A DNA stretch of 64,000 nucleotides, from the NCBI GenBank assembly GCA_964413165.1, contig CAYPSF010000001.1, positions 1,238-65,237 of the forward strand. Direction: 5' to 3'. Each line of letters begins with the position of its first letter. Position 1 is the first letter of the stretch. Positions 9,884-64,000 of this stretch are shown here, piece by piece. The translations under genes were made by a program, and so were the position numbers. Origin of the DNA: an uncultured Bifidobacteriaceae bacterium. GTDB taxonomy: Bacteria; Verrucomicrobiota; Verrucomicrobiia; Limisphaerales; UBA11358. The notes beneath the pieces were generated by a model. The model made no database searches. It was given only the letters and a program-made list of their open reading frames with translations, and was not told the DNA's origin.

Positions 9884-11410
9884 ATGTTAGCGAGGGTTTG
9901 TTCCGCGGCGCTTAATGGCATCGAAGCCTATCCCGTCGAGGTCGAAGTCAATGCCGGCTGGGGCGACACCCTCGTCGTGATTGTCGGCCTGCCGGATGCC
10001 GCGGTGAAGGAATCGCGCGACCGGGTCTCCACCGCGCTCACCAACTCCGGGTTCAAGTTTCCGATGGGGCGCACCACCATCAACCTGGCGCCCGCCGACG
10101 TGAAAAAAGAGGGGCCGAGCTTTGACCTGCCCATCGCGCTCGGCATGCTGGCCGCCAACGAACAAATCGAGACCGACCAGCTCGACAATTTCATCATCGT
10201 GGGCGAACTCGCGTTGACCGGGGCGGTGCGTCCGTGCAAAGGCGTTCTGCCCGTCGCCCTCCGCGCCCGCGCCGACGGTTTGACCGGCGTGCTGGTCCCG
10301 GCGGAAAATGCCCCCGAAGCCGCTGTCGTCGAAGGGTTGCAAGTCATTCCCGTCCGGAATCTACGCGAGGCGGCCCAGTTCCTGGAGGGGGAAATCAAAA
10401 TCACGCCGGCAAAAGTGGACACCGCCCGGATTTTCGACCAGCCGCAGGACGACGACCTGGATTTTGCCGAGGTCAAAGGGCAGGAAAATGTGAAACGCGC
10501 CCTGGAAATCGCCGCCGCCGGCGGGCACAACGCACTGCTCATCGGGCCGCCGGGCACCGGCAAATCCATGCTCGCCAAACGGCTGCCGACCATTCTCCCG
10601 CCGCTCACGTTGGACGAGGCGCTGGAGACCACGAAGATCCACAGCATTGTCGGGTTGCTGGCTTCGGGCCAGGCGCTGGTGACTCGCCGGCCGTTTCGCA
10701 CGCCGCATCACACGGCCAGCGATGCCGGCCTGCTCGGCGGCAATGTCAATCCCACGCCCGGCGAAATCTCGCTCGCGCACAACGGCGTTTTGTTCCTGGA
10801 CGAACTGCCGGAATTCAAGCGCAGTGTGCTGGAGACCATGCGCCAGCCGCTTGAGGACGGGCGCGTCACCATCTCACGGGCGGCGGGCACCATGACCTTT
10901 CCGTCGCAATTCATGCTGGTGGCGGCGATGAACCCGACCCCGGACGGTAAGATGCCGCATGAATCGAGAAGTTCCCCGCGGGAAATCCAGAATTACCTGG
11001 GCCGGATTTCCGGGCCGTTGCTCGACCGGGTGGATTTGCACGTGGAAGTACCGCCGGTGAAGTTCCGGGAAATCGCCGGCGATCGCACCGGCGAAACCTC
11101 GGCACAAATCCGCGATCGCGTCGTGGCCGCGCGCCGCCGCCAACATGACCGGTTTAAATCCAAACCGAAGATCACCTGCAATGCCCGGATGGGCACGCGC
11201 GAATTGAAACAATTTTGCGAGCTGGACGAGGCGACGAAGGAACTGCTGCAAAATGCGATGGCCGATCTGAATTTGAGCGCCCGGGCCTACGACCGGATTT
11301 TGAAGGTGGCCCGGACGATTGCCGACCTGGCCGGGGCGGAAAAGATTCAGAGCGACCACATTTCCGAGGCCATCCAATACCGTTCGCTGGACCGCCAGTT
11401 GTGGGCGTGA
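9884..11410 (+). CDS. comM: ComM/YifB Mg-chelatase-like AAA+ ATPase
   Basis: 508 aa. [22 protein letters not shown] is the N-terminal Lon-like domain. Also present: GPPGTGKS Walker [11 protein letters not shown] Walker B, and a typical C-terminal ...[15 protein letters not shown]. Confidence 0.9.
11345..11410 (+). repeat. Direct repeat copy 1 (last 22 codons of comM)
   Basis: attcagagcgaccacatttccgaggccatccaataccgttcgctggaccgccagttgtgggcgtga. It matches 18529..18594 at 64 of 66 positions. Confidence 0.9.
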
Positions 11411-11431
11411 CCGGCGCAGATTCATCCAGGC

Positions 11432-13525
11432 TCATTGCAAGCGTATCCGGTAGAAGCTGGACGGGTTGGTGAGCGGACGGGGATCGGTGAACGTGGCCGT
11501 GCCATTGACGAACGGATTGGTGGCCAACGGTTGCCAGTTTGCGGGAACCAGTGAGAGCGTGGTTTCAACCACCGCCGAGCCGGTGTCCGGACCGGTTGCC
11601 TGAAAATTGAGTCCGCTGTTCAAGAACAGGCTGGCGGGGATGATGGCGACGGGATTCAACTGCAGCAGGATGTTTCCCATCGAACCTGCATGGGGGGTTC
11701 CGCCCACCGCCACCCGGTAGGTCGTGTTGGAAACGGCCGTAAAGACAAGATTGGTGGCGAATCCGTTCGTGACGAGCGTGAGACTGTTGACGGCGGTTCC
11801 CCGGTACACGCCCAGCGAGGCGGGGAATTCCGACCCGGAAGCGTTTAACCTGACCCGGCCGTTGAACGGGGCCGTCCATTTCCACCACACGGACCGCCCG
11901 GCGGATTGGCCGGCGTGATTGGGTTCACCCGTTTCCGTTGTGGCGCTGCGAATATAGCTGGCCCCGGTTGCCGACACCCCGCTCAGGGTAAAGGCGTTGG
12001 CGAACATGTCGTTCGGTGGTGGCGGCGGTGGTGGCGGCACCGTCAGGTGGATGGTGGGGCTGTCCACGGAAAAACCACAAAAGGGAGTGGCGCGGAGAAA
12101 ATAGTCGGCCGCGTCGTTGGTGGTCGCTCCCGAGATGCAGATGGAACTACCGGTCTGGTTGGTGAGCGGGTTGTTGTTCTTGTACCACAGGACGGGCGGC
12201 AGTGGCCAGGCATCCACGCCGGACTGGAGGCAGGAGGATTCACCGGTGAAAAGGGTTTGCCCTGCGGGCGAAGAAGCGAAGGTCACCGGACGTGGTGCAG
12301 GCACCCCAAGGCGGCGGCTGATAATGCCTCCTTCGGGGGTGAAGCCGGTTTCGCCGGCCAGAATGTATTTGCCGTCCGGTTGCCGGGCCATGGCGAATAC
12401 CGGAAAGCCGGCGTTGTTGTTGAAGCTCGCGTCCACGGTCCCATCGGGGAGCAGGTGGGCGAAGTTGTTGATGTTGTTGCCGCCAATCTGGCTGAAAAAG
12501 CCGGCCACAACGAGATCGCCGCCATCCAGGGCATCAATGGCTGCAATGGAGGAGCCGTTGTTAACGCCGGGTTGAAAACCATTGATACTGTGAAACCAGG
12601 CGGGGTCGCTGCCACCCAATCGTTCGAGATGGAAAGGGAGGAATTGGTCGCTGTTCGCAAAGTAGCTGGCATTGAAGAAACCGCCGCGGATCATTTCGCC
12701 GTGGGAACTGGAACAATTGTATTGCGCGCCCTGCGAGCGCATGGCCGCACAGGAACTTAGAATGTGATCGGCATAAGCGTTCTGGATGTCGCCATTGCCC
12801 TGGAGCACCAGCGCGCCAAAAGATCCGGCGAGGAGCAGATACGGGAAGCTGATGGTGTTGGGGCCACAGGCACAAGGAGGCAGGTAATGGATTTGGACGA
12901 CTTGATCCGAAGCATAGCTGGAAGGCATGTTGAAGGTCGGATCAAGCATGCCATCGATATGCAGGCAGGCCACATTGCCGACGATCGTATTATTGCTGTT
13001 GGTGTAGTTGACGCTGCCGGCGCCAAAGATGACCTGGGCCGGCTGGTTGAGACCCCGGTCGATCGCAATGCTATCACAGCGGCGGAAAACCTTGCTGGCC
13101 TGGGTGGTGAAGGCGGTATCCACTGCCCATGACTGGTTGTTGGGGGTATAATTCAGCCGGCCCATCCCGTTCTGTCCACCAACGTAAACATTGCCGGTGT
13201 CGTCCACCTCGATCGCGTGGACCACGCCAAGGCTGGCCAGCGATCCCGATGCGAATTGGGTGTTCAGGGTTCCGTCCGGATGAAGCACAGCCAGATAGGC
13301 ATAGGCCTGGCCGTAAATGTGGAGGAAGCGGCCGCCAATCCAGATATTGCCGAAGAGGTCTACGGCCACGGCGGTGATGGGTTCATCAATGGCGCCTTGC
13401 TGCGCAAACGTGTTGTCGGGGTCGCCGGGTGCCCCCGAGGCAGACAATGGGGGAAAGCCGGTCAGTGCGACCAGGAACATCCCGAGAAGCAAGAGTTGAA
13501 GATGTCGTTTCAAAATCTTTGGCAT
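11432..13525 (-). CDS. Secreted repeat (beta-propeller-like, delta-60/DUF5122-like) protein with poly-Pro linker and C-terminal beta-sandwich modules
   Basis: 697 aa. Signal peptide MPKILKRHLQLLLLGMFLVALTG...SASGA. Recurring D(P/A)xF...G repeats. PPPPPPPP linker. NDMFANAF...ETGEPNHAG...VWWKWTAP module. C-terminus ends ...ANWQPL...SSFYRIRLQ. Confidence 0.7.
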   Translation of the reverse strand: MPKILKRHLQLLLLGMFLVALTGFPPLSASGAPGDPDNTFAQQGAIDEPITAVAVDLFGNIWIGGRFLHIYGQAYAYLAVLHPDGTLNTQFASGSLASLGVVHAIEVDDTGNVYVGGQNGMGRLNYTPNNQSWAVDTAFTTQASKVFRRCDSIAIDRGLNQPAQVIFGAGSVNYTNSNNTIVGNVACLHIDGMLDPTFNMPSSYASDQVVQIHYLPPCACGPNTISFPYLLLAGSFGALVLQGNGDIQNAYADHILSSCAAMRSQGAQYNCSSSHGEMIRGGFFNASYFANSDQFLPFHLERLGGSDPAWFHSINGFQPGVNNGSSIAAIDALDGGDLVVAGFFSQIGGNNINNFAHLLPDGTVDASFNNNAGFPVFAMARQPDGKYILAGETGFTPEGGIISRRLGVPAPRPVTFASSPAGQTLFTGESSCLQSGVDAWPLPPVLWYKNNNPLTNQTGSSICISGATTNDAADYFLRATPFCGFSVDSPTIHLTVPPPPPPPPNDMFANAFTLSGVSATGASYIRSATTETGEPNHAGQSAGRSVWWKWTAPFNGRVRLNASGSEFPASLGVYRGTAVNSLTLVTNGFATNLVFTAVSNTTYRVAVGGTPHAGSMGNILLQLNPVAIIPASLFLNSGLNFQATGPDTGSAVVETTLSLVPANWQPLATNPFVNGTATFTDPRPLTNPSSFYRIRLQ

Positions 13526-55974: not shown

Positions 55975-56348
55975 CCCGGGCGACGACCATCCGGATTGCG
56001 GCTGCGTCCGGCGCGCTCGCGGTGGTACTGGGTGCTTTCGGCGCCCATGGATTGCACGACCTGCTTACCCGGAACGGAACGGCCGCGATCTGGGAGAAGG
56101 CCGTTTTTTATCATTTCATTCATACGGTGATGTTGTTCGTGCTGGCCCAACACCGGCCGCTGAAATCCGGACCCTGGTGGTGTTTCCTGGCCGGGATCAT
56201 AATTTTTTCCGGTTCATTGTATTTGCTGGCCGTGACAAACCTGCGCTGGCTGGGCGCCATCACCCCGGTGGGCGGCGCGAGCTTCATCGCCGGCTGGGTC
56301 TGTTTGTTCCTTTCGGCAGCAAAAACCGGCGGGCCGGACCAAACCTGA
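55971..56348 (+). CDS. DUF423-family small membrane protein
   Basis: 125 aa. AAASGALAVVLGAFGAHGL is the signature, with 4 TM segments. Confidence 0.8.
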   Translation: MTRATTIRIAAASGALAVVLGAFGAHGLHDLLTRNGTAAIWEKAVFYHFIHTVMLFVLAQHRPLKSGPWWCFLAGIIIFSGSLYLLAVTNLRWLGAITPVGGASFIAGWVCLFLSAAKTGGPDQT

Positions 56349-56470
56349 TCCTGCCAGCCTGGACCTTTCCCTGTGCGCCATCGCGGACGGCCGATCTTCT
56401 TCCCGCGAATTGGCTTGGAGTATGGCATTCGGTTGACTACGGTTGGTTCAATCAATCCACGAGGGAACTT

Positions 56471-56925
56471 ATGCAGATTCGTCGCCATGCTTTCACACTC
56501 ATCGAACTGCTGGTCGTTATCGCCGTTATCGCCGTCCTGGCCGCGCTGCTCCTGCCGGCGCTGTCCAAGGCCAAGCAGAAAGCGCTGCGCAGCAGGATGA
56601 ATTCGGCCCGCGTCGTCGCGGAGGCAGCCGCGCAAGTGGACGTCGGGCGCGGCGTCTCAGCGCCCCCTGGCCATGGTCAAGAGCTTCGCAGCTTCGGTCG
56701 TGCTCAAACCGGGGTTGAGTGTTGGCACGGCGCAACCCGAGTCCATCTACACCGCGCAACTCAAGTCCCAGTTCCAGGCCTCCAATCCGGCCGGCAAAGG
56801 CGAGTGCGAGGTGCTCCTGCCGTTGCCGCCGCAAATTCATCTCGCTGGCCGATCTGGAGGTGACCGTCAACTCCCAGCCCAGTGTTCATTGCAGCGATGC
56901 TGCTGATTCCCCGGATGAAACGTGA
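56471..56925 (+). pseudogene. Decayed prepilin-type N-terminal-domain protein fused to a VIT-like start (two apparent frameshifts, truncated)
   Basis: Frame 1: MQIRRHAFTLIELLVVIAVIAVLAALLLPALSKAKQKA, then low-quality sequence. A plausible continuation shifts to the 56673 frame (SFAASVVLKPGLSVGTAQPESIYTAQLKSQFQASNPAGKGECEVLLPLPPQI), then to the 56719 frame (ISLADLEVTVNSQPS...) and stops. Confidence 0.4.
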
Positions 56926-57052
56926 GCCTCAAATTTCAGATGGATCAAATGACAGCCCGCGCTGAAGGTCGCTGACCCGGGACGCCGCGGAGCGGCTTCC
57001 CCTTTGAGGTTTGCCCGGTCCGACGGACAAAGGAAATCCCGTGAGACGGCGC

Positions 57053-57072
57053 AAATGACAGAACTGTCATCT
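57053..57072. promoter_or_regulatory. CusR/CopR-box-like palindrome (candidate operator)
   Basis: aaATGACAGaaCTGTCATct is a perfect 7-2-7 inverted repeat. It lies ~190 bp upstream of the 57261 gene. A heavy-metal-type response regulator is encoded 2 kb downstream. Confidence 0.45.
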
Positions 57073-57260
57073 GCCGTTCAGCGGACGTTCATCTCTCCAA
57101 GGTTTCATGATGGTGTTTGAATCTTATAAACCACGCAAACCAACACAAAACCAAACCACGTGCTGCGGCTGAGACAGCCATGCTCCGCCTTTGGAAGTTG
57201 ACGCCGGGAATGCCTGAGAGCAAATGTTGTCGGGTAAATTCAACCAAAAGGAGTCCGATT

Positions 57261-58271
57261 ATGAAAAAATATCTGTTGCTGGTGCTGTTCAGTTTGACCG
57301 TCGCGGTCTGCCACGCCGAGGGGCCTTATCATTTCATCAAGGAAATCCCCATCGGTGGCGACGGCGGCTGGGATTACTGCTCCGTGGATTCAGCGGCGCA
57401 ACGCCTTTACGTCTCGCACGGGACCAAGGTCGTGGTCATTGACCTCGCCCAGGACAAGGTCATCGGCGAAATCACGAACACCCCCGGGGTCCATGGCCTT
57501 GCGCCGGCGGCCGATTTGAAGCTGGGAATCACCAGCAACGGTCGTGAAAACAAGGCAGGCATCGTGGACTTGAAGACGCTGCAAACGCTTTCCAAGGTGG
57601 ACACCGGTCAAAACCCGGATGGGATGCTTTACGAACCCGGGCAGCGGGAATTTTACACGTTTAATGGACGCGGCCAATCGGCCACGGTCATTGATGCCAA
57701 ATCAGCCAAGGTGGTCGCCACGATTCCGCTCGCAGGCAAGCCGGAATTCGCGCAGGCCGATGCCAACGCCTGGCGTGTCTACGACAATCTCGAAGACAAA
57801 AACGAAGTGGTGGCCATCGATACGAAAACCCATAAAGTAGTGAATCGCTGGCCTATCGCGCCAGGCGAGGAGGCTTCCGGCATGGCCATTGACGTGGCGA
57901 ATCATCGGCTGTTCCTCGGTTGCGGCGGCAGCAAGACGATGGTGATGATGGACAGCACCAGCGGCAAGGTCATCACCTCGGTGCCGATCGGGCAGGGGGT
58001 GGACGCCAACGCATTCGATCCGGGAACCGGGTTCGCCTTTGCCTCGTGCGGCGATGGGACGGTCACCATTGCGCACGAAGACTCGCCGGACAAACTGACC
58101 GTGGTGCAGACGTTGGAAACCCAGCGCGGCTCGCGAACCATGACCCTCGATCCCAAGACGCACAAGATTTACCTGGCCGCCGCCAAATTCGAGGCCCCGG
58201 CCGAAGGCCAGCGGCGCGGGAAGATGGTCCCGGACAGTTTCAAGATCCTGGTGTACGGAATGGAGAAATAA
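57261..58271 (+). CDS. Secreted YncE/YVTN-like beta-propeller protein
   Basis: AAAGGAG RBS, then MKKYLLLVLFSLTVAVCHA signal peptide. GGWDYCSVDSAAQRLYVSHG...VVVIDL, with repeated ...N.V.VID..T.KV units. Confidence 0.7.
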   Translation: MKKYLLLVLFSLTVAVCHAEGPYHFIKEIPIGGDGGWDYCSVDSAAQRLYVSHGTKVVVIDLAQDKVIGEITNTPGVHGLAPAADLKLGITSNGRENKAGIVDLKTLQTLSKVDTGQNPDGMLYEPGQREFYTFNGRGQSATVIDAKSAKVVATIPLAGKPEFAQADANAWRVYDNLEDKNEVVAIDTKTHKVVNRWPIAPGEEASGMAIDVANHRLFLGCGGSKTMVMMDSTSGKVITSVPIGQGVDANAFDPGTGFAFASCGDGTVTIAHEDSPDKLTVVQTLETQRGSRTMTLDPKTHKIYLAAAKFEAPAEGQRRGKMVPDSFKILVYGMEK

Positions 58272-58278
58272 TTATTCC

Positions 58279-58983
58279 ATGAAATTGCAAACGAACGGGC
58301 AAATGCTGTTGTTGGCGTTTGGCGCGCTCGCTCTGGCTGGTTGCGCGAACATTTCTCCAGAGAACCATGCCCAGGATTCAACGCCGCGGTTTTCCCGTCC
58401 GCAGGCCATCACCAATCCTTACCTGCCGCTGGTGTCCTTGAAACAGGATGTGCTCGAAAATCCATCCGGCCGCGTCGAGCGCACCGCCAAACCGGACGTG
58501 CACAAGACTTTCCGGATCGGCGGCCAGACGGTCGAAGCGTTGGTGGTGGAGGACCGGGATTATGAAAACGGCAAACTGACGGAGGTCACGCTGGATTATT
58601 TTGCCCAGGACGACGCGGGCACGGTTTATTATCTCGGCGAAGACGTGGATGAATACAAAGACGGCAAGGTCGTCGGCCACGGCGGCACGTGGTTGTGGGG
58701 CAAGGACACCCAACAGCCGGGCGTCCTGATGCCGGCGCATCCGCGGGGGGGCGACCGGTTTCGTGCCGAGGACGTGCCGCATATCACCTGGGAGAACGAC
58801 GAAGTGGTTTCGGTTTCGGAAACCGTGATGGTGCCAGCGGGGACCTATCAAAATTGCGTGCGAATCAAGGAGACCGCCTCCGACGGTGCGACGGAATATA
58901 AATTGTATGCGCCGGGCGTAGGCTGTGTGAAAGAAATCGAAGGCAAGGCCGAACTGCCGTTGAAATCCCACACGACCCGATGA
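58279..58983 (+). CDS. Lipoprotein, hypothetical
   Basis: 234 aa. The lipobox LLLAFGALALAGC is followed by a soluble domain. Confidence 0.6.
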   Translation: MKLQTNGQMLLLAFGALALAGCANISPENHAQDSTPRFSRPQAITNPYLPLVSLKQDVLENPSGRVERTAKPDVHKTFRIGGQTVEALVVEDRDYENGKLTEVTLDYFAQDDAGTVYYLGEDVDEYKDGKVVGHGGTWLWGKDTQQPGVLMPAHPRGGDRFRAEDVPHITWENDEVVSVSETVMVPAGTYQNCVRIKETASDGATEYKLYAPGVGCVKEIEGKAELPLKSHTTR

Positions 58984-59037
58984 GGGCTGCGACATTTTTG
59001 CGTTTCAACGTTTCAACAATTTAACGATTCTCGATCC

Positions 59038-59712
59038 ATGCGTGTACTGGTCGTCGAAGACGAGAAGAAAACGGCGTCGTTCGTCCGCAAGGCGTTGCAG
59101 GCCGAAGGTTTTGCCGTGGACGTCTGCCACGACGGCGACGAGGCCCTGGCCGCGGCGCGGGCCACGCCCTTCGACGGCATTGTGCTCGACATCATGCTGC
59201 CGGGCCGCGACGGTTTGAGCGTGCTGCGCCAGTTGCGCGAACGCAAAAACGCCACGCCCGTCCTGCTCCTGTCCGCGCGCGGCGAGGTTAACGAGCGGGT
59301 CGAGGGCCTGAACGCCGGCGCGGACGATTACCTGCCCAAGCCCTTTGAGCTGGCCGAACTGGTCGCGCGAGTGCGCGCGTTGACGCGGCGGAGCGGCGAA
59401 AACAAGTCCACCGTCCTGCGCGTGGCCGACCTCACGCTGGACACGGTCACCCACCGGGCCCAGCGCGACGGAGCGGACATTGAACTGACCGCGCGCGAAT
59501 ATCGCCTGCTGGAATTTCTCATGCACTCCCCCGGCCGCCTCTGCGGACGCATGATGATCCTCGAAAAGGTCTGGGACTACGACTTCGATCCCGGCACCAA
59601 CCTGGTGGACGTTTATATCCGGCGGCTGCGCGAAAAAATTGACGCCAATTTTCAACCCAAGCTGCTCCACACGGTGCGCGGTTCGGGTTACCTGCTGAAG
59701 GAAGCACCATGA
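59038..59712 (+). CDS. OmpR-family response regulator, heavy-metal (CusR/CopR/CzcR) type
   Basis: MRVLVVEDEKKT..., LDIMLPGRDG, GADDYLPKPFELAELVARVRAL and TNLVDVYIRRLREKID..FQPKLLHTVRGSGYLL closely parallel E. coli CusR (recalled from memory). Confidence 0.9.
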   Translation: MRVLVVEDEKKTASFVRKALQAEGFAVDVCHDGDEALAAARATPFDGIVLDIMLPGRDGLSVLRQLRERKNATPVLLLSARGEVNERVEGLNAGADDYLPKPFELAELVARVRALTRRSGENKSTVLRVADLTLDTVTHRAQRDGADIELTAREYRLLEFLMHSPGRLCGRMMILEKVWDYDFDPGTNLVDVYIRRLREKIDANFQPKLLHTVRGSGYLLKEAP

Positions 59713-60770
59713 CCATCCGCACGCGGCTCACCTTCTGGTATGCCGGCATTCTGACCGCGTCGCTGCTGGTGATCGGTTTTGGCACCTACCGGGAGATTGA
59801 CGAGCGGTTGCGCCACGAACATCACCGGGAACCGGAGGAGCACGCCCTGGCCGAGGCGGGGGAGATGATTTTTCAGGTGGGCCTGCCCGCCATTGTGCTG
59901 GGGCTGCTCGGCGGCTGGTGGCTGACCCGCCGGGCGCTCGCGCCGATGACTAAGCTGACGGACGCCGTGGAAAAAATCCACGAACGCAATCTGCGCGAAC
60001 CGCTGCCTCGCACGGGCAATAACGATGAACTGGACCGGCTGACCGATGTTTTCAACGGCATGCTGGCGCGGCTCGACGACTCCTTCAACCGCACCCGCGA
60101 GTTCACCCTGCACGCTTCGCACGAGCTCAAGACGCCGCTCACGGTCTTGTGCGGCGAAACCGAGACCGCCCTGCGCGATGACTCGCTGGCGCCCGCCGAA
60201 CGCGAACGCGCGGCCAGCCTGCTCGACGAATTGCGCCGGCTGACCCGCATCGTGGACGGTCTCGCGCTGCTGGCCAAGGCTGACGCGGGCCAGGTCGCGC
60301 TGAAGCTGGAACCGATGCGGTTCGACGAGTTGGTGCGTGACAATTTCGCCGATGCGCAAATCCTGGCCGAACCGCACGGCATCCGGGTGGAACTGACCGC
60401 CTGCGAGGAAATCACCGTGCGCGGTGACCGCCATCGTTTACGCCAGTTGTTGCTGAACCTCGCGGATAACGCCGTCAAATATAACCAGCTGCGGGGCTGG
60501 GTGACGATGAGCTTGCGCCGGGCGGGCGACGCGGCTGAATTGACCATCGCCAACAGCGGGCCGGGGATTCCGCCAGAAATTTTGCCGCGGGTATTTGACC
60601 GGTTCTATCGCGGCGACCCGGCTCACAGCCAGGCGGTGGATGGCTGCGGCCTGGGTCTAAGCATCGTGCAATGGATTGTTTCCGCACACAAAGGAAGCGT
60701 CAAAATCGAATCGATGCCCGGGATAAGCACCACGGTCACAGTCCGCCTGCCGCTGGGCGCAAATAGATGA
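59709..60770 (+). CDS. Sensor histidine kinase (heavy-metal type) with minimal His-rich extracytoplasmic loop
   Basis: 353 aa. Two TM segments flank a ~30-aa loop, followed by a HAMP-like region, H-box HASHELKTPLT, and N/G boxes NAVKYN and GLGLSIV. It overlaps the response regulator gene by 4 bp. Confidence 0.9.
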   Translation: MTIRTRLTFWYAGILTASLLVIGFGTYREIDERLRHEHHREPEEHALAEAGEMIFQVGLPAIVLGLLGGWWLTRRALAPMTKLTDAVEKIHERNLREPLPRTGNNDELDRLTDVFNGMLARLDDSFNRTREFTLHASHELKTPLTVLCGETETALRDDSLAPAERERAASLLDELRRLTRIVDGLALLAKADAGQVALKLEPMRFDELVRDNFADAQILAEPHGIRVELTACEEITVRGDRHRLRQLLLNLADNAVKYNQLRGWVTMSLRRAGDAAELTIANSGPGIPPEILPRVFDRFYRGDPAHSQAVDGCGLGLSIVQWIVSAHKGSVKIESMPGISTTVTVRLPLGANR

Positions 60771-60873
60771 AACATTCAACATCCAACATCCAACAACAAA
60801 CATCCAATTCCGAAAGGACGAAACATTTGGAATTCGTTGGGCGTTGGATGTTGGATGTTCGATGTTGGATGTT
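60771..60873. repeat. Intergenic hairpin element with 7-bp-periodic arms (AACATCC type)
   Basis: Left arm aacattc aacatcc aacatcc aacaaca aacatcc aattcc. Right arm ggaattc gttgggc gttggat gttggat gttcgat gttggat gtt. Confidence 0.8.
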
Positions 60874-62299
60874 CCTTGCCCCAATTCTTGTCATTACCGG
60901 TTGCGCCCGGTTCCAGCCGCAGCCGGTCTTGCCGGAACAAACCGCGGCACAACTGGAGGCCCGGCGACTCGACGATGCCGGCCTCCAGAAATTCCTCGAA
61001 AAAAACCTCGGCCATGATCTGCCCGGCTGGCCGCTGTCCGAATGGGACCTGAATTCACTCACGCTGGCCGCGTTTTATTTCCATCCCGACCTGGACGTGG
61101 CCCGGGCGCAATGGCGGCTGGCTGAGGCGGGTGTCAAAACCGCCGGCGCACGGCCGAATCCGTCGGTGACCGTAACGCCCGCCTATGACAATCAGATTCC
61201 CGGTACCCCGAGCCCATGGATTTTGCCGGTGACCGTCGACTTGCCAATCGAGACCGCTGGCAAACGCGCCAAACGTATCGCCGAGGCGCGGGATGTCTCC
61301 GAATCCGCCTGGTGGGGGCTCATCACGGCTGCCTGGCAGATCCGCAGCGGGGTCCGCGCCGGTCTGTTGGATTTCACCGTCGCCCAACAGCGTGCGGATT
61401 TGCTCGCGAAGCAACTGTCGACGCAGGAGCAAATCGTGAAATCGCTGCTACAACGCTATGATGCCGGCGAAATTTCCCGCCCGGACCTCGCCAGGGCACA
61501 AATCGCCCTGAGCAAGACCCGACTGGACGCAAGTGACGCGCAAACCACGCTCGCCAACGCCCGTTCGGAGCTGGCCGAAGCGCTCGGGGTCGGCGCCGCC
61601 GCCCTGGATGGAATGAATCTGGCGTTTGATTTTTCCGCCCGCGCGCCCGACGACCTCACCTCGCGGGCGGCGCGGCGAGTCGCCTTGCTGGGGCGTTCGG
61701 ATATTCGCAGCGCTTTGGCCGACTACGCGGCGGCCCAGGACGACCTGCGGTTGCAAGTCGCCAAACAATATCCGGACCTGCATCTGGGACCCGGTTACGC
61801 CTGGAATTCCGGCAACAACGCCGACAATGAATGGAGTCTGGGCCTGACCCTGGAGCTGCCGATCCTCGACCAAAACCAGGGGCCGATTGCCGAGGCCAGG
61901 GCGCGGCGGGAATTGGTTGCCGCGCAATTTACCGCCCTGCAGGCAAAAGTTATTGGTGAAATTGACCGGGCCGTGGCGGGTTACCATGTGGCAGCGGAAC
62001 AATTGAAAACCGGCGAGACGTTGCTGGCCGCTGAACGGCAACAGGAACAATCCACTGAGGCCCAGCAAAAGGCCGGCGCCGCCGACCGGCTCGATCTGCT
62101 CAGCGCGCAGGTCGAATTCGAGACGGCGGCGCTGGCGCACCTCGACGGCCAGGTAAAATATCAAACGGCGCTCGGCACGTTGGAAGCCGCCTTGCAACGT
62201 CCCGCGGATGCCCTGTCGGTAACAGCCAATGCCAGCATCCTGACGAACATCGTCCGGCAGCCGTTTCCGACTTCCCCAGCCCAGGAGCACAAACCATGA
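60869..62299 (+). CDS. Outer-membrane efflux lipoprotein (TolC/CzcC family)
   Basis: Chosen start MFLAPILVITGCARF (lipobox). Two OEP-type repeats. The ORF-track start at 60767 would translate the hairpin repeat (HSTSNIQQQTSN...). Confidence 0.85.
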   Translation: MFLAPILVITGCARFQPQPVLPEQTAAQLEARRLDDAGLQKFLEKNLGHDLPGWPLSEWDLNSLTLAAFYFHPDLDVARAQWRLAEAGVKTAGARPNPSVTVTPAYDNQIPGTPSPWILPVTVDLPIETAGKRAKRIAEARDVSESAWWGLITAAWQIRSGVRAGLLDFTVAQQRADLLAKQLSTQEQIVKSLLQRYDAGEISRPDLARAQIALSKTRLDASDAQTTLANARSELAEALGVGAAALDGMNLAFDFSARAPDDLTSRAARRVALLGRSDIRSALADYAAAQDDLRLQVAKQYPDLHLGPGYAWNSGNNADNEWSLGLTLELPILDQNQGPIAEARARRELVAAQFTALQAKVIGEIDRAVAGYHVAAEQLKTGETLLAAERQQEQSTEAQQKAGAADRLDLLSAQVEFETAALAHLDGQVKYQTALGTLEAALQRPADALSVTANASILTNIVRQPFPTSPAQEHKP

Positions 62300-63312
62300 A
62301 CCCGCCCATAAAGAATATTCTGACCGCCCTCGCCGCGTTTGCCGCCGGCGCCGCGCTGGTTTTTTACTTTGTCAAAGTCCAGCCCAAGCCCAGTGGCGCC
62401 GCCGGGGACGAAGGCGCGACGACGAGCCCGGTGCAACTCAAGCGTGACGCGAACGGAGCCACCGTCGTCGTGCTGGACACGGAAACCCGGCAAAGGCTTG
62501 GCTTGAAGACGGAAGCGCCGGTGGCCCGGCGGTGGCAACCGGAGGTAAAAGGCTATGGCAGCGTGATTGATTCGGCCACATTGTCGGCGGCGATTGCCGA
62601 GTTGGAGTCCGCACGGACCGCGGCCGAGGCGTCGGGCCAGGAGTACTCCCGGCAACAGGCGCTGGCGGCACAGGATAACGCCTCGGCACGGGTGCTTGAA
62701 GCCGCCCGGGCTGCCGCGACCCATGACCAGCTGGGTTTTGAATCCGGCCGCGCGAAATTTGCCATCGATTGGGGCCAATCGCTGGCCGGGCAAACGAACC
62801 TGGACATGCTGCTGCAGCAGCTCGCCAACGGGGAAGTCACGCTGGTCCGCGTCGATTTGCCCGCCGGTCAAGTCCTGTCCCCGCCCCCTGCTTCGGCACG
62901 AATTGTCGCGCTGACGGATGAAACAAAGTCCGTCGACGGAGACTTATTCAGTGCCACCCTGGGCGTGAATCCGGTAACGCAAAGCCAGGTTTTTTTGTAT
63001 CTGATCAAAGGCCAGCCCCTGGCCCCGGGCGCGGCGGTCACGGGTTTTTTGAAAAATGCCGGCGAACCGGTAGCGGGCGTGGTCGTATCCTCCGGCGCCG
63101 TGCTGCGGTACGAGGGCAAGGGCTGGATTTACGTCCAGAACGGCTCGAATGATTTTACCCGCACGGAAATTTCCCTCGACCATCCGGCGGAGAACGGCTG
63201 GTTCGTTTCCGGCAATCTGACAGCCACCAACCGTGTGGTCGTTGGCGGGGCGCAGACGGTCCTGTCCGCGGAATTGAGCGGCGGCAATTTCAACTCCGGT
63301 TCACGCGATTAA
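62296..63312 (+). CDS. Efflux periplasmic adaptor (membrane fusion protein, CzcB/CusB-like)
   Basis: 338 aa. N-terminal TM segment ILTALAAFAAGAALVFYF. A coiled-coil-rich middle. C-terminal beta-barrel-like ...GWIYVQNG...FTRTEISL. ATGA overlap with the OMP gene. Confidence 0.75.
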   Translation: MNPPIKNILTALAAFAAGAALVFYFVKVQPKPSGAAGDEGATTSPVQLKRDANGATVVVLDTETRQRLGLKTEAPVARRWQPEVKGYGSVIDSATLSAAIAELESARTAAEASGQEYSRQQALAAQDNASARVLEAARAAATHDQLGFESGRAKFAIDWGQSLAGQTNLDMLLQQLANGEVTLVRVDLPAGQVLSPPPASARIVALTDETKSVDGDLFSATLGVNPVTQSQVFLYLIKGQPLAPGAAVTGFLKNAGEPVAGVVVSSGAVLRYEGKGWIYVQNGSNDFTRTEISLDHPAENGWFVSGNLTATNRVVVGGAQTVLSAELSGGNFNSGSRD

Positions 63313-63382
63313 TGGCCGAGCCACACATGAAATCGGAATTCCATACACTCGACCCAATCGCAGGAGAACGCACCATTGCGTC

Positions 63383-63425
63383 TCCCTCTCCCCTCAACGG
63401 GGAGAGGGTTGGGGCGAGGGGTGAG
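63383..63425. repeat. Terminal inverted repeat, left copy (itself a 10-bp-stem hairpin)
   Basis: tccctctcccctcaacggggagagggttggggcgaggggtgag. Its reverse complement matches 63896..63938 at 41 of 43 positions. Confidence 0.85.
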
Positions 63426-63843
63426 CCGGCGATTGATCATTCGCTTTCTTCAAATGCGTCGGCAGCCTCACTCGTTTCTCCGGTTGCACATTTCCCGAAT
63501 GTGGCGCGCGTGTTTGCAGGTCGTTCCAGATTGTTTCGTGCACCCAGCGAACGTCTTTCAGTTGTGAATTCCAAAAACGCCGTGTTTCAATATTACGCGT
63601 CTTCAAATAATCGTCGCGTGCGGCATCTTTTGCCTGTGGTCCGGGAAATCCGTGCTGACCGCCGTCCAGTTCGAGGTTGTAACGCGCCTCGGCACAAAAC
63701 AAATCAAGGAAATGTTTGCCGACCTGATGCTGGCGGCGGAATTTGTAAGCCGAGAACCTCCGGTCGCGGAGAATTGCCCACAATTTTTTCTCCGCCCAAG
63801 TGGATTTCCTGCGGAGGAGGCGGGGAATTTGCGAGGAATTCAT
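63394..63843 (-). CDS. DUF559 (Vsr/PD-(D/E)xK-like) endonuclease-domain protein
   Basis: 149 aa. EKKLWAILRDRRFSAYKFRRQHQVGKHFLDLFCAEARYNLELDGGQH...D..RD.YL is the DUF559 signature. The C-terminal AHPSPQPSPR is encoded by the left TIR. Confidence 0.8.
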   Translation of the reverse strand: MNSSQIPRLLRRKSTWAEKKLWAILRDRRFSAYKFRRQHQVGKHFLDLFCAEARYNLELDGGQHGFPGPQAKDAARDDYLKTRNIETRRFWNSQLKDVRWVHETIWNDLQTRAPHSGNVQPEKRVRLPTHLKKANDQSPAHPSPQPSPR

Positions 63844-63895
63844 TGCCGATGGGTGTAGTCGGGGAGATTGGGTGGTTCAAGCGGTATTTTGCATT

Positions 63896-63938
63896 CTCAC
63901 CCCTCGCCCTGACCCTCTCCCCGTTGAGGGGAGAGGGA
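63896..63938. repeat. Terminal inverted repeat, right copy
   Basis: ctcacccctcgccctgaccctctccccgttgaggggagaggga. Confidence 0.85.
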
Positions 63939-64000
63939 ATAGCTGACGGAAGTCCGACATTATTCTGTGATGTCTGTCTGGCGACGATCGTGGTGCTCCA

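Follow-up and report, generated by a model that had tools for sequence, protein, structure and literature searches.

In Escherichia coli, the preferred site of the copper regulator CusR is given as AAAATGACAAnnTTGTCATTTT (PMC11195947), and the CusR box is that of Yamamoto and Ishihama (2005), as quoted in PMC11195947 and bioRxiv 10.1101/2020.08.17.251918. CusR and the H2O2-responsive HprR recognise the same sequence (PMC8249747, PMC9302797), and the HprR/CusR box at hiuH-msrPQ is CATTACAAAATTGTAATG (PMC9302797). In Pseudomonas, one palindrome, ATTCATnnATGTAAT, is bound by CopR and CusR, which respond to Cu, and by CzcR, which responds to Zn; it has been tested by EMSA, DAP-seq and reporters (PMC11195947). 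PepSY proteins encoded beside two-component systems can act directly on the kinase sensor domain, and such modules include Vibrio cholerae DbfQRS and Pseudomonas aeruginosa PA2658/PA2659-BqsRS (PMC12714742).

The window, that is, the whole 64-kb stretch of DNA analysed here, belongs to the Verrucomicrobiota, unlike the E. coli cus locus, and carries a palindrome of the CusR-box type. The spacer between cusR and cusC of strain MG1655, read directly, contains AAAATGACAATTTTGTCATTTT. Both hexamers of the window palindrome, ATGACA and TGTCAT, are identical to those of this box (12/12 positions), and the spacer is 4 bp in both, which bears out the likeness to the E. coli copper box stated in the first-pass annotation. 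The inner bases are A/T in E. coli and G/C in the window; relatives of the window have ATGACAAAATTGTCAT and carry the exact ATGACAAnnTTGTCAT. At the E. coli cusC promoter, a third half-site (TGTCAC) follows TGTCAT at 11 bp and AATCAG lies another 11 bp on, the same phase as in the window. The hexamer TAAAGT stands at 50–55 from the box start there, and the window likewise has a -10-like hexamer about 50 bp on. At hiuH, TGTAAG forms a third direct half-site at +11, the same offset as that of GTTCAG in the window, and the hiuH-type variant ATTACA/TGTAAT occurs in relatives (L053, L057, L065, L072 and the second box of L138). Besides copper, the hiuH system responds to H2O2/HOCl, and its targets have no relation to the genes described here.

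The gene neighborhood is also comparable. As in the cus locus, an OmpR-family regulator and a kinase adjoin an outer-membrane protein/adaptor/RND efflux operon, with the RND gene present in relatives. The cus genes are divergent, whereas those of the window are co-directional; a divergent order is seen in relatives L053 and L138. A cusF gene is absent, and genes for a PepSY protein, a beta-propeller and a beta-lipoprotein are found instead. The Pseudomonas palindrome is common to paralogous heavy-metal regulators and is needed for activation and autoregulation; its half-site differs from that of the window. The relatives share with the DbfQRS and BqsRS modules a gene for a small secreted PepSY protein at a two-component locus; in the relatives it comes first after the box and usually lies upstream of the two-component genes. 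Unlike those modules, the window is without a PepSY gene, and the PepSY proteins of the relatives are lipoproteins with a Cys/His-rich N-terminus. Judged by these comparisons, the window palindrome most likely represents a switch of known type in a phylum new to it, to which a longer phased architecture and a putative regulon of uncharacterised envelope proteins are added. We consider it probable that a composite operator-promoter, with the palindrome as its upstream end, serves the CusR-like regulator, whose gene lies 2 kb downstream.

Gene content of the predicted operon

The features of the locus are listed in Table 1. The operon is compact: its first two gaps measure 7 and 54 bp, and at the three later junctions the genes overlap by 4 bp. 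Within 56300-59200, a scan with E. coli consensus rules called no terminator on the + strand.

Table 1. Features of the palindrome region and of the operon behind it, in window coordinates
Feature	Position	Strand	Remarks
Upstream copy AAATGACAG	56947..56955	+	within 18-nt direct repeat 56938-56955; window-specific
Extended imperfect palindrome GCAAATGACAG / CTGTCATCTGC	57051..57074	.	11-nt arms, 10/11 complementary
Operator core ATGACAG-AA-CTGTCAT (predicted)	57055..57070	.	perfect 7-2-7, CusR-box type ATGACA-N4-TGTCAT
Third half-site GTTCAG	57076..57081	+	direct orientation, 11 bp after TGTCAT
Fourth half-site GTTCAT	57087..57092	+	11 bp beyond third
-10-like hexamer TTTCAT	57103..57108	+	family consensus T-T-t-a-A-T
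Deletion scar (putative)	57117..57197	+	A/C-rich leader of lost PepSY gene joined to degraded terminator hairpin
Promoter-like element of the propeller gene, TTGACG-N16-GCAAATGTTG	57198..57229	+	conserved upstream of orthologs; unique in window
Secreted YVTN-type beta-propeller	57261..58271	+	336 aa, not YncE ortholog
Lipoprotein, uncharacterised all-beta family	58279..58983	+	lipobox LAGC
OmpR/PhoB-family response regulator, CusR-like	59038..59712	+	47% identical to E. coli CusR
Histidine kinase	59709..60770	+	two transmembrane segments, ~27-aa His/Glu-rich outer loop YREIDERLRHEHHREPEEHALAEAGE
Outer-membrane efflux protein, OEP family	60767..62299	+	start overlaps kinase stop by 4 bp
Divergent periplasmic adaptor	62296..63312	+	no RND gene between adaptor and window end

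The first protein of the operon is related to YVTN-repeat propellers (PDB 1L0Q, E = 4e-19) and, over about 110 residues, to the YncE structure PDB 3VGZ (E = 5e-7). Its assignment as a YncE ortholog was rejected, with 62.7 bits against the cut-off of 400 of the NF052280 equivalog, and the "YncE-like" label of the first-pass annotation is not retained. Residues H53, H78, H215 and H301, together with many Asp/Glu residues, are kept in at least 90% of 109 homologs. A literature search for YncE or propeller proteins tied to copper returned incidental mentions only.

Homologs of the lipoprotein number more than 2,000, and all 120 of those listed are named "hypothetical protein" in their source. Its predicted structure is all-beta (pLDDT 85). 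A sequence search of the PDB gave no match, and the structure search gave no informative neighbor, the best PDB match being an uncharacterised lipoprotein (E = 1.7e-3, TM ~0.4).

The alignment of the response regulator with E. coli CusR (Table 1) covers the full length, in agreement with the first-pass statement that the two are parallel along their length. Among NCBIfam models, the regulator fits TIGR01387 (cztR_silR_copR heavy-metal regulators) best, over the full length and with 262.1 bits, which is below the cut-off of 279.2. An assignment as a CusR equivalog was rejected (217 bits versus 420), and the protein is called CusR-like instead. In our reading of the alignment, 6 of the 16 positions of the recognition helix differ from CusR; like the score below the TIGR01387 cut-off, this counts against the operator reading. 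The spacer between the lipoprotein and regulator genes (58993-59037) holds tandem 8-bp units, GTTTCAAC GTTTCAAC AATTTAAC GATTC, directly before the regulator start codon, and the corresponding spacer in L001, L016, L047 and L052 holds three to four copies of ATTCAACG. The TTCAAC core of this repeat resembles the GTTCA half-site, but its spacing is 8 bp.

The kinase is closest to the heavy-metal sensor kinases (TIGR01386, 249 bits, under the cut-off of 292.6), which it matches at model positions 150–457 only. The periplasmic sensor domain of E. coli CusS is missing. The ExxE motif and the His positions of its outer loop YREIDERLRHEHHREPEEHALAEAGE recur in 63 orthologs.

The palindrome and its link to the regulator gene

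The first-pass annotation placed a perfect 7-2-7 inverted repeat at 57053-57070, where the window, read directly, has AAATGACAGAACTGTCAT. The repeat exists; its proper span is 57055-57070. The flanks of the extended palindrome, caa...gcc, are kept in part in the family consensus. The exact string ATGACA-N4-TGTCAT is present in one copy in the window and in 0 of 100 dinucleotide-preserving shuffles, and no second full palindrome with up to 3 mismatches is found elsewhere in the 64 kb. By our estimate, about four 7-2-7 palindromes of arbitrary sequence are expected per 64 kb. Since such palindromes are not rare, the argument depends on the agreement with this particular box.

Screening one genome per species gave 80 loci with a propeller ortholog. 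Most are from Verrucomicrobiota/Limisphaerales MAGs, and peat, bog or fen is the sample source of many. A box was counted as present at ≥11/12 matching positions, and a regulator as an ortholog at ≥74% identity. The box was found in 27/27 loci that have the regulator ortholog and upstream DNA, versus 8/52 loci without the ortholog (Fisher p = 2e-14; these loci come from related MAGs, so that the p value and the counts overstate independence). The degenerate box AT[GT]ACA-N4-TGT[CA]AT has 29 exact matches in 879 kb of loci, against 0.2 expected, and these lie upstream of the propeller gene or the PepSY gene preceding it, with two exceptions, both in L050. Across 34 genome loci, the information content per column gives a sharp footprint: it is zero in the 150 bp ahead of the box, comes close to the maximum within the box, and remains elevated over TTCA-N7-TTCAT and one further block. 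No transcription-factor gene other than that of the regulator accompanies the box among the genes tracked in these comparisons. Lack of conservation upstream of orthologs had been named in the first-pass annotation as a refutation; instead, the box is kept there and co-occurs with the regulator gene. By these counts, the palindrome is real, conserved and far above chance, and it is most likely the operator of the adjacent CusR-like regulator.

Layout of the predicted composite promoter

In promoters of PhoB-type activators, the 11-bp direct repeats of the pho box replace the -35 hexamer. TGTCA-type half-sites in 11-bp phase reach the -35 position without a -35 hexamer in the pho box, as they do here; unlike the pho box, the array in the window opens with an inverted half-site, and its regulator belongs to the heavy-metal clade. 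GTTCAG and GTTCAT follow TGTCAT (57065-70) at intervals of exactly 11 bp, and the -10-like hexamer TTTCAT behind them has T, not A, at its second position. From this spacing, we infer that the position for a -35 hexamer would fall between the third and fourth half-sites and that transcription would start near 57115, about 60 bp past the box start. Read in this way, the palindrome is the first part of a predicted composite promoter, a point that the first-pass annotation missed.

A search of metagenome contigs with ATGACA-N4-TGTCAT-N6-TTCA-N7-TTCA returned at least 120 stretches, 80 of which were used as loci. This set was chosen by the pattern itself, and its unbiased parts are the gene content and the positions from 39 onwards. 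The hexamer at positions 49–54 is outside the search pattern. In the non-redundant sites among the matches listed, its first position is T in 61/70, its fifth is A in 47/70 and its sixth is T in 64/70, and TGG or GG often directly precedes it. A consensus sigma-70 scan called no promoter on the + strand between 56300 and 59200, which is weak evidence either way because E. coli rules were applied. An RNA element between the box and the ATG was considered and rejected, since no Rfam family matches there at E ≤ 1 and the remnant hairpin described below is no more stable than shuffled sequence. The CusR box appears to be part of a longer phased half-site array that is common to E. coli and a distant phylum.

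Genes behind the box in other genomes

In the 80 metagenome loci, the first gene after the composite site encodes, among the matches listed, a PepSY protein in 32, the propeller in 13, the regulator in 13, an outer-membrane protein in 3, the lipoprotein in 2 and assorted other proteins in about 12. At least 27 loci (14 genome and 13 metagenome loci) have the box 62–194 bp ahead of the propeller gene and nothing else that resembles a promoter in the interval. The lipoprotein gene has a box of its own in L010, L050, L116 and L158. L050 contains three boxes: one upstream of the lipoprotein gene, a second in the divergent spacer between the PepSY gene and the propeller gene, and a third past the 3' end of the lipoprotein gene. 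L053 has a divergent, E. coli-like arrangement, in which the regulator gene and the box are followed by the propeller and outer-membrane protein genes.

Locus L138 (metagenome contig Ga0181520_10006156, 1-7100) contains the regulator gene, two adjacent boxes (ATGACAAAACTGTCAT and ATTACAAAACTGTAAT) and then a propeller gene, whose product shares 34% identity with that of the window. Downstream are small ORFs, of which one has a weak likeness to YHS, and then genes for a CusB-like adaptor that includes a heavy-metal-binding domain and for a CusA-like pump. This pump shares 44% identity with E. coli CusA and keeps its methionine triad. The integrase genes that come next suggest a mobile context.

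Genome loci with a PepSY gene number 17; a PepSY lipoprotein gene (PF03413, 44–62 bits) stands between the box and the propeller gene in 14 genome loci. The PepSY proteins of the relatives have 115–270 aa, and the start codon of the lipoprotein with the Cys/His-rich N-terminus is about 100 bp past the box start. The PepSY lipoproteins of L012, L052 and L154, each encoded by the first gene after the box, have about 250–270 aa, with a C-terminal extension and weak PepSY_like/PepSY_2 matches. One homolog of the beta-lipoprotein, P0074 (370 aa), is fused to a PepSY_like domain, which hints at a functional link between the two families.

Several independent gene arrangements thus support membership of the propeller and the lipoprotein in the regulon. 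The first-pass annotation had assigned both genes, together with the czcCB-like genes downstream, to a metal regulon. The regulon part of this proposal is supported, in that the propeller and lipoprotein genes, and likewise the regulator and outer-membrane protein genes, occur directly behind the box in other genomes; copper as the signal is not established. On this assignment, three uncharacterised secreted families (the YVTN propeller, the all-beta lipoprotein and the Cys/His-rich PepSY lipoprotein) would be placed in one envelope stress regulon, and their roles become testable. To our knowledge, almost no transcription-factor sites are known for peat and soil Verrucomicrobiota, and the present analysis offers a well-supported cis-regulatory prediction (site, geometry and regulator) for uncultured members of this group.

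Inducing signal and efflux pumps

The signal cannot be read from the box, a type used by Cu, Zn and H2O2 regulators alike. A first alternative to copper induction keeps the same operator and assigns it another, non-metal or non-copper signal, such as oxidants or Fe/Al/Zn envelope stress, in the manner of E. coli HprR. We regard this reading as possible, though on the doubtful side. The shared recognition of one sequence by HprR and CusR and of one palindrome by the Pseudomonas Cu and Zn regulators speaks for it, as does the kinase loop, which carries the ExxE motif and His residues in place of a CusS-like periplasmic domain.

The pumps bear on both sides of the question. No RND pump gene is present in the 64-kb window. 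In L001, the closest locus by propeller identity, the pump gene starts 268 bp after the adaptor gene. The L001 propeller (CAZKTW010000042.1) is 92% identical to that of the window, the highest value among the loci. The L001 record carries the label "uncultured Bifidobacteriaceae bacterium", while almost every other close relative is from the Verrucomicrobiota; the contig is probably mis-binned. In L052, a barstar-like small ORF (…FYGRNLDAWIDCMSDL…) lies between the adaptor and RND pump genes, at about 11400-11720.

The L095 pump shares 93% identity with the L001 pump. It passes the CusA/CzcA heavy-metal RND model TIGR00914 with 711.8 bits against a cut-off of 701.45, a result that applies to this relative and not to the window, and it argues against the alternative. 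The methionine triad of CusA (M573/M623/M672), in contrast, is replaced in L095, in L056 and in the second pump type of other box-linked loci, and TM4 of the L095 pump reads VDDA..VEN; this favors a signal other than copper. The HME TM4 signature DFG-DGA-VEN was not found in the box-linked pumps and occurs only in L042, which has no box. Among the box-linked pumps examined, the triad is kept in L138 only, and this box-controlled, propeller-headed operon with its CusB-like adaptor and CusA-like pump stands against the alternative, as does the assignment of the kinase to the heavy-metal sensor family. A cation signal for the kinase is likely. The copper label was not upheld, since the box serves Cu, Zn and H2O2 regulators and the pumps of the close relatives are without the Met triad.

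Loss of the PepSY gene in the window

No PepSY homolog was found in the entire 64-kb window, and the comparison with relatives indicates that the ancestral first gene of the operon, encoding the PepSY lipoprotein, is deleted here. The hairpin part of the putative scar corresponds to the 3' half of the hairpin that follows the PepSY gene in relatives. The intact hairpin in L007 has a folding energy of -21.6 kcal/mol (z = -2.2), compared with -13.5 kcal/mol (z-score -0.67), no better than shuffles, for the remnant in the window.

The scar is followed by the promoter-like element of the propeller gene, TTGACG-N16-GCAAATGTTG, which we read as a putative promoter of that gene. The element is also kept before lone propeller orthologs amid unrelated genes, with no box or regulator gene. 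The form TTGACG-N16/17-GCAAA(A/T)GT occurs about 30–65 bp before the propeller ATG in L004-L008, L014 and L017, and it looks like this lineage's version of a sigma-70 promoter, with TTGACG as the -35 and cAAAgT as the -10. A TTGACG-type element is also found upstream of the regulator gene in L002, L009, L011, L012, L015 and L026, where it ends about 6 nt from the ATG and would give a leaderless mRNA.

These observations raise a second alternative, in which the box is a relic that served the deleted PepSY gene and has ceased to contribute to expression, with TTGACG-N16-GCAAATG alone driving the propeller gene and those after it. The missing PepSY gene and the conservation of the propeller's element even in genomes without a box or regulator are in its favor. 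We nevertheless consider it quite unlikely. None of the four half-sites is damaged in the window, nor is the -10-like hexamer, and the terminator that would isolate the propeller gene is degraded. The same PepSY-less layout occurs in L001, L002, L022, L071 and L072, and these loci keep the box, with its half-sites and hexamer, intact, which argues against a dead relic. In the loci mentioned above with nothing else promoter-like in front of the propeller gene, the box is also the only candidate. With the PepSY gene deleted and an element of its own before the propeller gene, the box would regulate the propeller by read-through and not as its sole input; in the window, expression of the propeller is probably fed both by its own basal promoter and by transcripts that read through from the box-dependent promoter. 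The loss of PepSY may also alter signalling in this genome, which is speculation.

A chance palindrome, or the site of an unrelated factor, is highly improbable: arbitrary 7-2-7 palindromes are expected a few times per window, but the shuffle result, the 29 matches and their placement, together with the absence of any Rfam match in the region, a 7-bp stem with a 2-nt loop that is unable to form an RNA hairpin, and the regulator as the only tracked transcription-factor gene travelling with the box, speak against both, and the chance reading is, by the conservation data, refuted for practical purposes.

Proposed mechanism

From the elements observed in the sequence, from how they are conserved and go together with the regulator gene, and from the gene families behind the box, we propose that the composite operator-promoter would work as follows. 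An envelope cation signal would reach the kinase, which is exposed only by its 27-residue His/Glu-rich loop. The phosphorylated regulator would bind the inverted repeat at 57055-57070, and further protomers would occupy the direct half-sites GTTCAG (57076-81) and GTTCAT (57087-92), which flank the place of the missing -35 hexamer. RNA polymerase would then be recruited to TTTCAT (57103-08) and start near the predicted position. With the PepSY gene and half of its terminator lost, the transcript would run into the genes for the propeller, the lipoprotein, the regulator, the kinase, the outer-membrane protein and the adaptor. Read-through into the regulator gene would give positive autoregulation, and the propeller's own element (57198-57229) would provide basal expression.

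We further suggest, quite tentatively and more as a conjecture than as a probable reading, that the PepSY lipoprotein, the YVTN propeller and the all-beta lipoprotein may form an undescribed periplasmic metal-handling set that is regulated together with HME-type RND pumps in Verrucomicrobiota and Acidobacteriota of peat and soil. The propeller might replace the CusF-like partner of the pump, a proposal based on L138, where it heads a true CusBA-type operon, and the kinase might read the signal via its His/Glu loop and/or PepSY.

The upstream copy and the flanking regions

The first-pass annotation had counted AAATGACAG at 56947-56955, about 100 bp upstream of the box, as an extra half-site. 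The sequence is there, yet such a half-site occurs at this distance in none of the other 34 loci, and any half-site within 150 bp upstream is absent from 33 of these 34, the only one being in L041 at -23. The occurrence of this 9-mer is within chance, with a shuffle mean of 0.55 and two or more copies in 11 of 100 shuffles. The segment 56938-56955 forms a direct repeat, 15/18 identical, with 57044-57061, which comprises the left flank and left arm of the box, and may have arisen by local duplication where the conserved block begins. Judged by its distribution, the upstream copy is probably not functional.

Further upstream, 56443-56925 contains a gene with a prepilin-type N-terminal methylation motif (MQIRRHAFTLIELLVVIAVIAVLAALLLPALSKAK, start at 56471), which appears frameshifted or truncated, with a shift of the reading frame around 56670-56720. 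At the other end of the operon, the translations of 63313-64000 are of low complexity, such as SPSPLNGERVGARGE and LTLSPLRGEGI, and this segment looks like a repeat element or insertion. An ORF of 149 aa lies on the minus strand at 63394-63843.
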